64,000 nucleotides of DNA from Opitutales bacterium (GCA_965197745.1 CBDANS010000006.1:576001-640000); one strand, 5' to 3'. Positions 7,178-50,789 are shown, counted from the first letter of the stretch. Program-made: numbers and translations. The notes: generated by a model from the letters alone, not told the origin.

Positions 7178-7313
7178 GTAAACCTTCAAGTAAGCTACTC
7201 AAGGCAGAAAGGGGTAAAATGGCTAAGCTTTTCCATAATAGGTTACTGGTCGTGACCACGAAAACTGGTCCACTTGAAAAGTTAGTCTGGTCCAACTAGA
7301 AAGGACACAGACA

Positions 7314-7580
7314 ATGAAAGGCAAAAGATACACGACCGAAGAGAAAATACGGATGCTGCGCCAGGCGGACAAAGGGAAAACGATCCTGGAAGCATGCCGC
7401 GAGAACAACATAAGCGAACAGACCTTCCACCGCTGGAAACGTGAGTTTGGGATGATTGATGTCAACCAGGCCAAGCGGATGAAGGAGCTCGAGAAGGAGA
7501 ACGCGCGGTTAAAACGGATGCTGGCGGACAAGATGCTGGGGATAGAGATCCTGCAGGAGACCCTCGAAAAAAAACTGTAA
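7314..7580 (+). CDS. IS3 OrfA (HTH_Tnp_1)
   Basis: KRYTTEEKI..ISEQTFHRWKREFG..RMKELEKENARLK; ends in an A-run slippery site (gaaaaaaaactgtaa). Confidence 0.93.
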   Translation: MKGKRYTTEEKIRMLRQADKGKTILEACRENNISEQTFHRWKREFGMIDVNQAKRMKELEKENARLKRMLADKMLGIEILQETLEKKL

Positions 7581-8555
7581 GCCCTGGGCACAAGCGGCAA
7601 GTGGCAGAGAGACTTGTGACTCGGGGCCAGTGTTCGATGCGAGCGGGGTGCCGGTACTTTCGGCTGCACCGTTCCACCTATGCGTATAGGGCCAAGCATC
7701 CGGATGCCTGGCTAACGAAACTAAAAGCGGCAGTAAGGCGGTTATCACGGCAATACGCGAGGTGGGGCTATCCCAAGATCACGAAGCTGTTGAAGGACGA
7801 AGGCTGGCAGGTGGGTAAACGTCTCGTGCAACGTCTGCGACGTGAACTGGGTCTGGCGATCCCCCCACGCAAGCCAAGACGCCGGCGCAGGGATGTCTGC
7901 ACCGGGCTACCGACAAAGGCCGAACATCCCGACCATGTTTGGACCTGGGATTTTATCCACGATAAGACGGTTCGCGGCGGCAGTCTAAAAATGCTGACCG
8001 TGCTCGATGAGTACACCCGCGAGTGCCGGGTGATCCATGTTGATCGCCATATCAATGCGGAAACGGTGCGCGGTATCATGCAAAAACTGCTCGACCGGCA
8101 TGGGCCGCCAAAATATATTCGTAGCGACAACGGTTCCGTTCCGAGGAGCGAAGCGACGACATGCAAAGCCATTCATTGAAAGCCAATTGAGAGCCTGGCT
8201 AACTGCGATGAAAATCAAAACCCTCTATATCGAACCAGCAAGCCCTTGGCAGAACGGATACATTGAATCGTTCCATGCCCGTTTTCGCGAGGAGTGTTTA
8301 AACCGTGAACAGTTATGGACTTTGACCGAAGCCCGCGTGGTCATCGAAGATTGGCGCTGGCTTTACAATCATGTCCGACCCCACCGCAGCCTCGGCAACA
8401 TCACTCCACGGCACTTCACTGAAAACCTCAATACCGAAGGCTCGGGCTCCATTCGGGCTACGCCCTCATTGCGCCCAAGCCTTGACTTCCTCTACCAACT
8501 TAACTTCAACATTAACCTCTCCAGACTAACTCTCCCTGTGGACCAGTTTGTGTAA
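7577..8555 (+). pseudogene. IS3 OrfB DDE transposase, frameshifted by a 31-nt insert at 8138-8168
   Basis: VWTWDF, LDEYTREC and RSDNGS lie in one frame; FIE..SPWQNGYIESFH..RPHRSLG continues in the +1 frame. Confidence 0.88.
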
Positions 8556-8563
8556 CCCGACCA

Positions 8564-10012
8564 GAGGGATCTTTCTGTTTCAGCCCTTCCAGCAACTGCA
8601 ATGATGGCAGTTTGACGCTGCCTATCCTGGAGTATAGCCACGATTTCGGGTGTTCGATTACCGGTGGCTATCGTTACCGGGGAACGATGATTCCAAATCT
8701 ATTTGCAACCTATCTTTACGCTGATTTCTGTTCCGGGAGAATCTGGGGAGCGACAGAGATTAGTAACAACGTATGGATGGCGACAGTAATTATAGACACT
8801 GTTTTTTCGATTAGTACTTTTGGTGAAGACGATTCCGGTGAGATTTATTTTGCTCACTACGCCGACAGTGGGACGATCTATCGCCTGAGTCCCGGATTTG
8901 ATAACACCCCACCGTCGATCACTGCGCACCCCATCAGCCAGGAAGTGCAGTCGGGCACCTCCGTCGTATTATCTGTCGCCGCGAGCGGTGATGATCTCAC
9001 CTACCAGTGGTATGAAGGCAATATAGGTGACACAGCGAGTTTGATCGCTGGCGCCACCAGCAGTACTTTCACGTCGGAAGCTCTCACCGCGAGCACAAAT
9101 TTCTGGGTACAGATAAGCAATGCCGGAGGGACTGTTAACAGTGAGACCGCAGTGATCACGGTATCGGCGCCACTCCTCACTCTCGTTCTCGACGGTTCGG
9201 GCGATATCGCCGGTGAAAACATCCAGCACCCTAACGGAAACATCTTTGACCAGATCCTGTTAACCGGAGAAAGCATCCGGCTTCAGGCAAGACCCAATCG
9301 GATTACCCGGGTATCGTTCATGGACGAAAACGAGGACATTGTGCAGGTAGAGTTCTCAGGCGCAGGGACCTTTACTGTAATCCTCGACCCGGCCACCTTC
9401 CTGCCCCCGGCCCCTCCCCCACGCTACAATCAGGCAATCGAGTACGTAACAGGCAAACCAAGCGTGGTCATCGATGGAACCGACTCCAGTACATTTTTCA
9501 GTATCTTCACCGTTGGTTCAATCAACGCCGTGAACCAGGCTCTGTTCCCTGAGGGACAAGTCTATGATGCCCAGGCCGATGTCACCCTTGTGGAAGTGAT
9601 TAACTCCACGGGAATGGGAGGGATGCAATTGTCAAACACCGTCTTCAGTGGAAGCACGGGCAAAGTCGGTGTCGATGCGAGAGGAGTACCGATCGCGGTT
9701 CGGTTAACGGTTGGAGACATCGATGCCAGTGAGGAAGCGGTGCCCCACCTCTTGTTGGGAGAAGGGTCCTTCACGGTACCCTCGGGCAACCCCGGTTTGA
9801 GGATCACCGGAGGAGACTTGCTGCAGACGAATGGCGCAGCGGTCGTCGTCGCGGAGAGTGGATCGACGACAACGGGATTTGAGACCCTGATAACCCAGAA
9901 TAACTTTAAGTCCGACAACACACCTCAACCGACGCAGAGCATTAATGCGACTTTTGTAAACGAAGCCGGGAATGACCTCACGGTGACCATTGAAGAACTG
10001 ACGATTGAATGA
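8564..10012 (+). pseudogene. 5'-truncated glucose/sorbosone dehydrogenase (PQQ beta-propeller)-like protein with Ig-like domain and a ~280-aa C-terminal domain
   Basis: Frame is open from the IS end (EGSFCFSPSSNCNDGSLTLPILEYSH..GCSITGGYRYRG..YLYADFCSGRIW..FGED); Ig motif PPSIT..LTYQWY; N-terminus missing. Confidence 0.8.
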
Positions 10013-10159: not shown

Positions 10160-10520
10160 TGCTGATGATATCCGATTTTTGATATCTGATATTCGATTTT
10201 CGAGGTGTTGGAGTTACTTCAGATATCGAATATCGGATATCGTACTTCGTATATCTGTCAACTTAATGTTCGGGTTGCTTTTGATCCTACACAAGAAAGA
10301 GTTGGCCACTACCGAGCGTAGCGAGATCTTACAATCCATGCAGATGTCGGAAGCCTATTGACATTCCCCTGGATTGCCGCGTCGAGCTACTCCTCGCAAT
10401 GACAATTTTATAAAAACTCATTCTTGTGCCTTGTGGAAGATCTCGCTGCGCTCTGGTAGTGGCTATTTTTTCTTACTTCGCACATCGTATATCGCATATC
10501 GTACTTCGTATATCTGTTTT
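10160..10520. repeat. Degenerate 7-mer tracts around a branched palindrome and a half RPE-like element
   Basis: gatatcc/gatattc and gatatcg/aatatcg 7-mers; GCCACTACCGAGCGTAGCGAGATCT (~10304) pairs with AGATCTCGCTGCGCTCTGGTAGTGGC (~10438); GGATTGCC..CTCCTCGCAATGAC at 10371-10403. Confidence 0.65.
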
Positions 10521-15359: not shown

Positions 15360-15800
15360 TGGTTCAGCGCGATGTCGGTTATCTCCTTATTGTCATTGCG
15401 AGGCCACTAATATTAAATTAGCGGACGTGATTAGCCTCGTCCCGTTCCCCGGACGCGACGGAGCGCGTCCCTCCATTTTCTTCACCCTTAATATAGACAT
15501 TGTATCTCAAAAAAAGATCACCCTTCTGGAGGGCCACGCGTCGTCGTGGCCGTGGCGATCTAGAGCTATGTCGGCTTCTCCTCGGTACGATTGCTGATTG
15601 AATAAGAGAATGGCGGATGTCGGTTATCTCCATATTGTCATTGCGAGTCCTGCAACCGCAGAACGAAGCAATCCAGGGGATCGCCGGTTACGTGTTGATA
15701 TTCGCCTGGATTGCTTCGTCGCAACGCTCCTCGCAATGACATGTGAGAAAGCAGACTTTACCGCATACGCGCATTTCCGTGTATTCGCTTATCCCCTTTT
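15360..15800. repeat. Composite repeat block: REP palindromes, a full RPE-like palindrome (15636-15741) and an 8-mer tract
   Basis: GGACGCGACGGAGCGCGTCCCTCC (~15451), GGAGGGCCACGCGTCGTCGTGGCC (~15528), TGTCATTGCGAG...CTCGCAATGACA. Confidence 0.85.
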
Positions 15801-19619: not shown

Positions 19620-20436
19620 GTTGAAGGGCCACGCTATGCCTGTCATGCCGTAGTCCCGTGGTGGCGGGACGAACGAAGGCAGATCGTGGCCGTTTGTTAT
19701 TCGGTAATTATCGGAAAATACGCGGACGCGATCAGCCGTCGCCCGGTGGACTATGGCCGACAGGCATCGCGCGTCCCTCCATATTTTACATCCCCTCGTG
19801 CACGCTTCTACGCATTCACCCATAATCGCATTCACCCTTTCAACTTTCTTTCTATTGTCATTGCGAGGATCCTGCAACTGCAGGAGACGCGGCAATCCAG
19901 GCGAATGCCGGATACGTGTTGATATTCGCCTGGAATGTAAGATGTCAGGCTACTGCCCTCGGTAGCCACGTCGCAACGCTCCTCGCAATGACAGTTGAGA
20001 AAAAAGTCTATTTCTGCTTTACCGCTTACACACATTACCGCATATCCACATTCACCCTTACTCCCTTTTACCCATATCTACATTACCTGGAGGGCCATGC
20101 TCCGTCATGGCCGTTAGGTGTTCGGTAAATAACGAAAAATACACGGACGCGATCAGCCGTCGCCTCGAAGATGCGCGAGGACTATGGCCGACAGGCACTG
20201 CGCGTCCCTCCATATTTTACATCCCCCCGTGCACGCTTCTACGCGTTCACCCATTCACGCATAATCGCATTCACCCTTTCAACTTTCTTTCTATTGTCAT
20301 TGCGAGGATCCTGCAACTGCAGGAGACGCGGCTACCGAGCGCAGCGACATCTTCCATTCCAGGCGAATGCCGGTTACGTGTTGATATTCGCCTGGATTGC
20401 TTCGTCTCCCGCAGTTGCGGGATCCTCGCAATGACA
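19620..20436. repeat. Tandem composite repeat units (~420-440 bp period)
   Basis: 19700-19893 recurs at 20121-20332; RPE-like palindromes at 19856-19993 and 20295-20436; REP pairs at ~19622-19781 and ~20089-20212. Confidence 0.9.
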
Positions 20437-49439: not shown

Positions 49440-49468
49440 TGATTGGACCCCGTTTTTCGTACCAATTA

Positions 49469-50465
49469 TTAAGTGAGAGAGTTCCCGGGTATTAATGGTT
49501 TTAGGATTGATGTATATGAGAGATCTTGGCGAAGTGAGGGCGTAGCCCGAACGCGGCCAAGATCTGAAAGGAATGTGACAAACTCTTGTGGGCTTTTAAA
49601 GCCTAAACGACTGTGGGGATGATCATGGTTATAGGTCTGGCGCCATTGTTCGATTACAACTTGTGCTTCAGCCACGCTGAGCAACACTTCACGGTTCAAA
49701 CACTCATCGCGTAAGCGGTTGTGAAACGACTCGATGAAACCGTTTTGCCAGGGACTGCCCGGATCGATATATATCGCCTTGATCTTTTTGTCGGACAACG
49801 ACTGCTGCACTTGATGAGCAATGAATGGCTTCGCATGTCGTCGCTTCGCTCCTCGGAACACTGCCGTTGTCACTACGGATATAGCTGGGAGCTCCCTCCT
49901 TTTCAATGGCCTCGCTAAGCACAGAGAGGACATCCGATGAGGGGAGTTCACGAGCGACCCGGATATCCAGACATTCACGCGTATATGTCTTCGCTTCGCT
50001 TGAGTGTCGTCGCTTTCAGCTCCTCGGTACATCGATCAGAGTCATCATCTTTAATGGACCGCCATGGTCTGTGCGATCATGGACAAAGTCCCAGGACCAA
50101 AGGTGATTGCGACCGGTTGCTTTAGTAGGCGACCCCGTAGAGACCCCTTGACGGTGTCTACGCTTTTTAGGTGGCTTTACCTGCAACCCTTCTGAACGTC
50201 GTACCGCCTGAACAAACTTCCTGTTTGTTGTCCAGCCTTCCTTTACGAGCAAGGCACGGATGCGCCGGTAACCGTAGCAGGGATGTTCCCAGGACAGGGT
50301 TACAATCCGCTCGGCCAACCGCTGAGCTTTCTTACTGGCCTGCTTGGGCTGGTAGCTGAAAGTTGACCAACTGAGGCTGAGGTAGGAACAAGCCCTTCGC
50401 AACGAGCACAGCCCTCTCTCAGCCGCATCTTTTACTACTCGCTTCTTCTGCTTGGGGCTCACCAC
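49469..50465 (-). pseudogene. IS3 OrfB DDE transposase interrupted by inserts at 49989-50030 (42 nt, in-frame TGA) and 49829-49859 (31 nt, frameshift)
   Basis: WSWDF, LID|YTREC, RSDNGS|FIA, SPWQNGFIESF, PHSRLG. Confidence 0.88.
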
Positions 50466-50725
50466 TTTTTTGACAGCGTTTCCTCCATTACCTGATTCTT
50501 AAGCATTTGATCAGCGAGCATCTTCTTCAACTCGGTGTTTTCTTTTTCCAGCTCTTTAAATCGCTTCGCATCGGCTAGTTCCAAATTGCCATACTTTTTA
50601 CCCCAGCGATAGAAGGTCTGTTCACTCACGTTGTTGCCTCGGCAGATTTCCTCTACCGTTTTTCCGGTATCGGCTTGCCGCAGTATTGCGATGATCTGTT
50701 CTGTTGTGTATCTTTTTCTTTTCAT
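50459..50725 (-). CDS. IS3 OrfA
   Basis: KRYTTEQII..VSEQTFYRW..KELEKEN.ELKK. Confidence 0.93.
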   Translation of the reverse strand: MKRKRYTTEQIIAILRQADTGKTVEEICRGNNVSEQTFYRWGKKYGNLELADAKRFKELEKENTELKKMLADQMLKNQVMEETLSKKW

Positions 50726-50789
50726 GAGGTTATCTGTTTATCCCGATAACCTCTCTCTGTTAATGATACCATTTTTGGGGGTCACTCCA

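Follow-up and report, generated by a model that had tools for sequence, protein, structure and literature searches.

Short hairpin modules in the IS3-family transposase genes of an Opitutales bacterium: probable copies of a miniature mobile element

Inserts in the window and their insert-free alleles

This work concerns a short DNA insert that interrupts transposase genes in a 64,000-nucleotide stretch of the genome of an Opitutales bacterium (GCA_965197745.1, CBDANS010000006.1:576001-640000; hereafter, the window). Two insertion sequences (ISs) of the IS3 family carry it. The first, a copy of IS-A1 with TG..CA ends, occupies window positions 7247-8563 on the plus strand: orfA (7314-7580, +) contains an A8 slippery run at about position 7570, and orfB, which lies in the -1 frame, is interrupted. 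The N-terminal part of orfB (7568-8137, +) encodes HTH_21 and the first two-thirds of the rve core, and ends ...IRSDNGS; the C-terminal part (8172-8555, +; FIESQ..., rve_3) lies in the +1 frame relative to it. Between them is a 33-nt module (8139-8171, +), preceded by the G at 8138 that remains as the first base of a Glu codon. The second element, a copy of IS-B1 (49440-50789, minus strand), is about 72% like IS-A in patches and holds two modules on the minus strand: (i) a 44-nt module at 49986-50029, which replaces the AA/AG of a Glu codon (LID-E-YTRE) with a net gain of 42 nt and an in-frame TGA, and (ii) a 33-nt module at 49826-49858 (SDNGS-E-F; net gain 31 nt).

The host elements have the expected properties of the IS3 family: HTH_Tnp_1, HTH_21, rve and rve_3 domains, slippery runs (A8 and A AAA AAG), TG...CA terminal inverted repeats, and 4-bp target duplications at many copies. 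The window's own IS-A1 copy shows no matching 4-bp duplication (ttac at 7243-7246, gagg at 8564-8567), and may be the product of recombination between two copies.

The first-pass annotation of the window described two near-identical 31-nt inserts on the usual Glu codon of the catalytic motif in two widely different transposases, each shifting orfB by +1. These observations stand. The sequence GTTCCGAGGAGCGAAGCGACGACATGCAAAG is found at 8138-8168 (+), and a copy with a single mismatch (30/31) at 49829-49859 (-); no matches are expected on the basis of 100 shuffles. Both inserts are preceded by GAC AAC GG. (SDNGS) in an IS3-type orfB and both add a net 31 nt, while the codons flanking them differ (GGT TCC in IS-A vs GGC AGT in IS-B). 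The two ISs align only in patches, at 71.8% over 245 nt and 72.4% over 123 nt. When compared with the NCBIfam IS3 transposase profile (transpos_IS3), the three protein pieces of IS-A cover positions 1-81, 96-285 and 287-368; since the match stops at 285 and restarts at 287, it is exactly the Glu of SDNGxEF (position 286) that is displaced.

The precise unit is revealed by insert-free alleles of the same ISs. These had been proposed as a check, and were found at every site discussed below. Empty IS-A1 alleles read GGT TCC GAG TTT ATT, encoding SDNGSEFI. Comparison with the filled alleles reveals that the inserted unit is 33 nt long (TTCC...GCCA; 8139-8171 and 49826-49858) and was swapped for the AG of the Glu codon: G-AG-T became G-[TTCC...GCCA]-T. 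The earlier delimitation of a 31-nt unit, the removal of which restores the motif, is thus superseded: cutting out 31 nt leaves the non-native SDNGSPFI rather than the native SDNGSEFI, because the 33-nt unit replaced AG.

The inserts are not confined to the two copies in the window; confinement to these two, explained by a single local gene-conversion tract, was the outcome that the first-pass annotation had named as counting against its proposal. In the genome that holds the window (G000; 4.45 Mb, 7 contigs, 92% complete), the module core, with or without a T/A pair, has 94 matches, compared with none for a control pattern. All 94 lie within 19 flank classes of IS3-type transposase genes, 64 of them at SDNGS-E-F and 30 at LID-E-YTRE. 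Alignment of 40 IS-A-type and 36 IS-B-type copies, each of at least 1200 nt, distinguishes five insertion sites. Site 0 is the A8 frameshift run, occupied in six diverged copies by a 25-nt module (net +23) in reverse orientation (antisense). Site 1 (LID-E-YTRE) holds a 44-nt module (net +42) with an in-frame TGA. Site 2 (SDNGS-E-F), with its 33-nt module (net +31), is filled in 35/40 A-type and 33/36 B-type copies. Site 3 (PW-Q-NG) takes 44 nt (net +42) that are in frame and contain no stop, and site 4 (RD-E-CL) takes 37 nt (net +35) that hold a TAG.

At every one of these sites, N-AR-(T/A) in empty alleles corresponds to N-[TWCCGAG...CA]-(T/A) in filled ones; two target letters are lost, and there is no duplication. 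The insertion sites, as read from empty and filled alleles, conform to S-AR-W, and mostly to YG-AR-T. At all four sense-oriented sites, the replaced AR occupies codon positions 2-3, and the codons hit—three for Glu and one for Gln—belong to the conserved catalytic core. Four of the five modules bring a frameshift or stop that truncates the transposase, and in total about 100 IS3-type copies in the genome are disrupted by modules.

Filled and empty alleles coexist among close relatives. Nine copies of IS-A1 are filled and four are empty, and they otherwise differ by one adjacent T/C and a few single-nucleotide polymorphisms (SNPs). IS-B-type copies show many combinations of filled and empty among sites 1-4. 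The empty site-1 allele, GATG-AA-TATACG, is present in relatives within the same genome, and at locus L104 of a second genome (G401).

The module outside IS3 elements

A broader scan, for two letters followed by CCGAG, a small palindrome and GACA, gave 223 matches in the genome and 26 in its reversed sequence; 120 of the 223 lie in IS3 genes. The family consensus that emerges is TACCGAG, followed by a 5-17-nt hairpin and then CGACATCTTCCA. The module is built from two variable letters, CCGAG, a short covarying hairpin and (C)GACA; a second mini-hairpin may follow, and the end is usually ..CCA. The stem is often closed by G.A pairs, with a GNA loop; GNA triloops of the d(GCGNAGC) kind are the subject of PMC13037366. 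Covariation supports the hairpin: 37 of 77 distinct middles are end-to-end palindromes (mean 7.3, maximum 16 in 200 shuffles), with 16 distinct stem pairs. A compensated change is seen between the mini-hairpins GCGAAGC at site 2 and GCTGAAAGC at site 1.

Many modules sit in one arm of a second repeat, X, a palindrome of about 150 nt (TGTCATTGCGAGG...CCTCGCAATGACA). Among X arms with a recognisable head, 60 are empty (58 of them read AA) and 35 are filled, by 27 different inserts; AR is replaced, as it is in the ISs. X occupies four spans of the window (10290-10400, 15690-15730, 19850-19990 and 20320-20420), and three of its units have a module in one arm: at 10310-10333 (+), where the partner arm (10368-10383, -) is empty and reads GC-AA-TCCAGG; at 19936-19964 (-), partner arm 19886-19901 (+) empty; and at 20333-20356 (+), partner arm 20391-20406 (-) empty. 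X-related loci elsewhere in the genome include C7:1541877-1542330, C7:1545550-1546000, C6:787820-788270 and C7:483540-483960. Inverted X heads bracket small GIY-YIG genes at four of the eight GIY-YIG matches in the genome. According to PMC11893778, NTS/SRM repeats are cut by Ssn (GIY-YIG) single-strand nucleases; X fits a gene-less form of such an Ssn-nuclease/SRM-like element, and the module is a separate invader of it.

Single modules are also found in intergenic DNA. No well-formed module was found inside an ordinary gene of this genome: all lie upstream of likely starts, and two mid-ORF (open reading frame) matches are look-alikes. An in-frame occupation of ordinary genes of the kind known from RPE was rejected on these grounds.

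The exact 21-mer core occurs at at least 50 places in species-representative genomes, across several phyla and in non-IS contexts. Among the core matches listed are Opitutales, Coraliomargarita, Woeseia, Treponema, Sulfurovum and Parvularculaceae; two or three of these matches, with an extra letter and inside coding sequence, look like chance. The Woeseia module occupies a T-loop, in a partial 3' copy of a tRNA downstream of a normal tRNA-Arg, with TTCG-AA-TC changed to TTCG-[..]-TC. A tRNA containing an intron was considered and rejected, as ARAGORN finds only the normal tRNAs upstream, and the module-bearing pieces are partial 3' copies. In Treponema and Coraliomargarita, the module lies between inverted repeats.

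In the isolate Cerasicoccus arenae KCTC 12870 (L077), a third transposase family is occupied at the Glu codon of DNGx-E-F by another variant, 37 nt long, with an empty allele on the same small scaffold; three IS-gene families—IS-A, IS-B and this one—are hence hit at one codon. Otherwise, DNGx-E-F with a module was found in none of 400 sampled genomes of the phylum (a single match, in G365, is due to chance), and four metagenome matches are all due to chance. G401 has 12 filled DNGx sites and four empty IS-B sites; its locus L106 is filled at site 1 and empty at sites 2 and 4, and L104 is empty at sites 1 and 2 and filled at site 4. While the single-copy genes of G401 and the window's genome are 76-81% identical, too distant for synteny to yield empty alleles at unique sites, an IS-B copy in G401 is 91.7% like B1 and the modules are identical. 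The comparison suggests that the ISs, inserts included, have spread horizontally between these distinct lineages.

Age and spread of the inserts

IS-B1 and IS-B2 differ at 10.4% of positions, and their two inserts are identical at 79/79 positions. Between B1 and B2, synonymous divergence (dS) is 0.60 in orfA, 0.49 in orfB-N, 0.90 in the stretch between the inserts and 0.15 (0.147) in orfB-C; the corresponding ratios of non-synonymous to synonymous divergence (dN/dS) are 0.08, 0.14, 0.13 and 0.16. Given that B1 and B2 diverged under purifying selection and yet have identical inserts, the genes were functional at that time, and the inserts arrived or were exchanged later. By this measure, the inserts appear to be young invaders, far younger than the divergence of the ISs. 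The first-pass annotation had reasoned that an inactivating lesion should not be better conserved than the gene around it; youth provides the answer. The low dS of orfB-C, downstream of site 2, suggests that B1 and B2 have recently exchanged their 3' parts.

The broken ISs have nevertheless moved. Filled A and B copies occur at unique loci, each with its own 4-bp duplication, and have therefore transposed; they retain intact ends. There has been recent expansion, with 9-10 copies of B1 at at least 99.6% identity, and 14 copies of B2. Four intact IS-A1 copies are present, two of which have orfA and orfB fused into a 415-aa frame. A 1-nt gain in orfA (alignment columns 252-254, -GA to TTT) is responsible for the fusion in the empty IS-A1 copies at C7:1901266-1902549 and C4:136859-138142. 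The same fusion is seen in four filled IS-A1 copies, in which the frame runs 300 aa to the insert rather than 415 aa; fused orfA/orfB would yield a transposase that needs no frameshift. The end repeats of IS-A and IS-B are similar only (TGG.GTGACC...AAAA.TGGT), and cross-mobilisation through these ends is possible.

Taken together, these data lead us to regard each insert as probably a copy of a miniature, non-coding, mobile hairpin module of 25-45 nt. It would resemble repetitive extragenic palindromic (REP) sequences, and it breaks transposases and leaves non-autonomous ISs. Such a module would insert at S-AR-W (mostly YG-AR-T) sites and swap out the AR dinucleotide; intact relatives presumably supply transposase in trans to the broken IS copies, and recombination between copies would spread the module further. 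The near-identity of inserts in divergent ISs would then reflect recent, repeated insertion or transfer with one variant per site, rather than a function in the IS, as the dS values suggest. The module may act as single-stranded DNA, given its G.A pairs and GNA triloops and its targets in hairpin loops and T-loops. One of the two readings offered in the first-pass annotation, that of a tiny element aimed at IS3 transposase motifs, survives in part. The discrete unit, the clean empty alleles and the Cerasicoccus arenae variant agree with it; the restriction to IS3 does not hold.

Several points weigh against this interpretation. Mobility is read from filled and empty alleles rather than from a de novo insertion, and a link between the module and a mobilising enzyme is missing. 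The module variant is specific to the site and is the same there in IS-A and IS-B, which random re-insertion would not predict. A third IS family in the genome has a suitable CCCG-AG-TTT site that is empty in all copies seen. A guide-like match between module and flank is absent: local alignment on both strands, compared with shuffles, gave p of about 0.04-0.05 in 2 of 20 tests, which is taken as chance. All 36 IS-B-type copies found in the 92%-complete genome carry inserts, despite the recent expansion of B1 and B2, such that a helper must be assumed (IS-A1, or a lost or unassembled copy). Finally, under a nearest-neighbour DNA model, the IS modules fold at -0.2 to -1.6 kcal/mol, which is matched by 183-200 of 200 shuffled sequences. 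Stability in DNA hairpins is a property of GNA loops and G.A pairs. Because the energy model shows no stable fold, the hairpin rests on covariation together with this stability.

Recombination between copies bears on the best-surviving alternative. In this alternative, which we consider unlikely, the modules are not self-mobile: a few accidental insertions occurred, once per site, and all later spread was due to transposition of the ISs and to gene conversion or recombination among copies and families. Judging by sequence patterns, recombination certainly shuffles the IS copies. In the 13 copies of IS-A1, each state of an unrelated polymorphism is found with and without the insert, so that all four combinations exist, as they do for other SNP pairs. 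Chimeric ISs with an IS-B-type left and an IS-A-type right flank, or the reverse, cross over exactly at the common module (one copy in the C7:1673745 region of the window's genome, and L056 and L062 in G401), and B1/B2 dS drops to 0.147 downstream of site 2. The module thus serves as a homology patch between diverged IS families. These patterns all agree with a non-mobile insert, as do the single fixed variant per site across the A and B families, and the finding that filled IS-A1 copies are adjoined by TTC like IS-B, where empty IS-A1 has TTT. However, A and B do not agree in the letters adjoining the insert (GGTTCC G vs GGCAGT G), nor do B1 and B2 within 10 nt of site 1, which would require conversion tracts of at most 62 nt. 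Nor does a single accident per site account for 35 X arms with 27 different inserts at one site, for single intergenic modules, for the core in tRNA-fragment T-loops and hairpin loops of other phyla, or for a different variant at the same codon of another IS family in Cerasicoccus.

A second alternative is that a host or third-party system writes modules into transposase genes in order to silence ISs; the first-pass annotation had raised a host silencing device. The breakage of about 100 IS3-type copies at conserved core codons, and of the same Glu codon in three transposase families, would suit such a system. A truncated transposase that keeps its DNA-binding part can inhibit IS transposition, and a truncated OrfAB of this kind could do so here. 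We nevertheless judge the proposal improbable: modules are equally common in non-IS DNA, the third IS family in the genome is untouched, occupation is absent from the 400 other sampled genomes of the phylum and the metagenome collection, and no dedicated gene was found. Nothing points to a host device.

Also advanced in the first-pass annotation was a reading in which the insert is a working part of the IS, either cut from the mRNA or bypassed by the ribosome (a hop from CCG to CCA, or a +1 shift), and throttles transposase output. Its proposed search for joined junctions was made in the contigs of two metatranscriptome libraries (X15, X16), and in runs X1 and X2 for a locus with a two-site IS-B and IS-A1. 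Contigs drop rare forms, RNA libraries can hold DNA, and the uncovered parts of X1 and X16 are uninformative. The RNA-library contigs run ungapped through the inserts at site 1 (X15 record 8) and site 2 (X15 record 9). Three insert-less joints were seen: an X1 contig at IS-B site 2 skips exactly 33 nt and has AG in place; X15, at depth 22, skips 33 nt and carries CT, matching an IS-A2-type empty allele with TTC; and X15 and X2 skip 36 nt and carry AAACT, matching the IS-A1 empty allele with TTT. These are not splice products, because no single deletion of the filled sequence yields the restored letters. Every insert-less joint carries AG, and no splice-type joint (31, 33, 42 or 44 nt without restored letters) occurs in the covered contigs. 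The retention of inserts in RNA-library contigs, and the failure of any single deletion to restore the Glu codon, speak against an intron.

For the bypass form of this reading, there is some encouragement at site 2: an incoming-frame CCG and an outgoing-frame CCA enclose 25 nt, the +1 frame is open throughout the insert, and a Shine-Dalgarno-like GAGGAG and a rare AGG follow CCG. The absence of an intact IS-B despite recent expansion, the position of AR at codon positions 2-3 at all four sense sites, and an RtcB gene in the genome can likewise be set on this side. The codon pair does not extend to all sites: it is present at site 2 and in 4/30 site-1 copies, and is absent at site 4. Sites 1 and 4 contain in-frame TGA and TAG, respectively, the site-0 module is antisense, the net lengths are uneven, and the same modules occur in non-coding repeats and intergenic DNA. 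Bypass or frameshifting was rejected on the inconsistency of the codon pairs across sites (checked by eye). A known RNA family was rejected as well, cmscan of 20 loci and the whole window giving no Rfam match besides tRNAs. Moreover, to keep the inserts identical next to dS of 0.5-0.9, selection would have to exceed that on the protein itself. A working part of the IS is thus very improbable.

Relatives among known systems, and candidate enzymes

The nearest described relatives of the module seem to be the REP-type tagged palindromes, especially a CCA-tailed class tagged with CGTC. Like REPs and REPINs, which are associated with RAYT transposases, the modules are non-coding, multicopy hairpin repeats of 20-40 nt, in which stems covary around conserved unpaired letters, and which are thought to act as single-stranded DNA; the window's genome also has a single-copy RAYT-like gene. 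The hairpin resemblance is borne out by covariation, and not by the energy model, which gives no stable fold for IS-type modules. In contrast to REPs, modules have no GTAG tag (CGTC is found only on the reverse strand of the IS-type core) and their conserved letters are T-W-CCGAG and (C)GACA..CCA. They are single rather than inverted pairs, replace a dinucleotide, and lie inside transposase genes. The RAYT-like gene does not reach the family cut-off, and its flanks hold no modules.

Di Nocera et al. 2013 (PMC3733652) describe CGTC-tagged REPs as CCA-tailed hairpins with no dedicated transposase, some of them intragenic, including Rickettsia RPE-4/-6 and repeats in Opitutus terrae; hosts include Spirochaetes, Sulfurovum and alpha-Proteobacteria, and intragenic copies are mostly read through in frame in housekeeping genes. 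The modules share with this class the short hairpin, the unpaired CCA tail and the lack of a dedicated transposase, and the reverse strand of the IS-type core contains CGTC. They differ in that four of the five sites break the frame, that among genes here only those for transposases are hit, and that the consensus lacks a CGTC/TGTC head with an 8-9-bp stem starting with A.T. The module core is absent from four text supplements of PMC3733652 (figures not covered), and literature searches with the core sequence, and with hairpin terms combined with transposase, returned no description of it.

Likeness to other systems is more limited. For NTS/SRM-Ssn elements, it is X that has the expected properties (an HGTC-WY head, a palindrome, then C, and a position flanking ssn): X combines a TGTC head with an AT-starting palindrome followed by CCAG, and its apical hairpin resembles the IS-type module core. 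The module has no HGTC-W head on either strand, and sits in one X arm, where it breaks the lower stem. Bypassed inserts are reportedly known from T4 gene 60 and, as 'byps', from Magnusiomyces mitochondria, where the take-off and landing codons match and a stop immediately follows take-off. They too are short (27-55 nt) mobile inserts in coding sequence that break the frame if read normally; at most module sites, by contrast, the matched codons and stop are missing, and there are antisense copies and copies outside genes. Miniature inverted-repeat transposable elements (MITEs) and other non-autonomous IS derivatives resemble the broken ISs in having many intact-ended, helper-dependent copies without a working transposase. 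The difference is that here the inactivating event is the arrival of a nested, foreign 25-45-nt module and not an internal deletion. Terminal inverted repeats are lacking in the module, and two target letters are lost where a MITE would duplicate them. PATEs of the IS200/IS605 type insert 3' of a fixed tetra- or pentanucleotide without target loss. The modules, in contrast, have variable left flanks (GATG, AGTG, TCCG, TGGC, TTAC) and lose AR.

Two kinds of protein encoded in the genome would be candidate mobilisers: one RAYT-like Y1/HUH protein, and several small GIY-YIG nucleases of the Ssn type (for example at C7:1542004-1542222) that may act on single-stranded DNA. The RAYT-like gene (C6:163380-163706) scores 66.6 bits to NCBIfam REP_Tyr_transpos, below the 80-bit cut-off. 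A REPtron arrangement was rejected, there being no modules around this Y1 gene. At C6:162750-163760 (L081, 881-1863), a second frame of 171 aa, lying on the same strand, overlaps the 198-aa frame of the RAYT-like Y1 protein; an adjoining 153-aa frame has a similar C-terminal stretch, and this may be a frameshifted two-domain gene.

If the preferred reading of a mobile, REP-like module is correct, it adds a third layer of genomic parasitism, in which a 25-45-nt hairpin colonises and inactivates ISs and other repeats, and has turned about 100 IS copies in one genome into helper-dependent relics. The loss of two target letters without duplication would, in that case, indicate an insertion mechanism unlike that of any described transposase. 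More tentatively still, it is possible that the modules form a new class and the smallest known mobile DNA: enzyme-less, single-stranded hairpins of 25-45 nt that insert by an undescribed AR-swapping reaction at T-loop-like YG-AR-TY, act as hyperparasites disabling IS3 cores, Ssn-type hairpins and tRNA-derived island attachment sites, and have a 21-nt core conserved across phyla. The interest lies in the clean junctions—filled and empty junctions of this quality being rare for a REP-like element—the cross-phylum core and the scale of IS inactivation. For annotation, the module explains a recurrent frameshift in the IS3 transposases of marine Opitutales-like bacteria, and cautions that a conserved lesion should not be taken for recoding.

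The IS-A/B-like copies are also hosts to other DNA. Seven copies in the window's genome (C7:1692945, C1:24170, C6:1180432, C6:1451259, C6:659150, C7:981794 and C7:1682978) are interrupted at about residue 25-40 of the orfB C-terminal part by a different element, ending ...GGAAAATATAAATTAT. At C7:1060600-1067350, one IS-A-like copy is in two pieces with a tyrosine integrase gene (C7:1065131-1065586) between them, and residues 29-43 of the orfB C-terminal part of this copy are found on both sides of the integrase. Integrase genes (C4:136043 and C7:1352039) are found no more than about 400 nt from two of the four intact copies of IS-A1.

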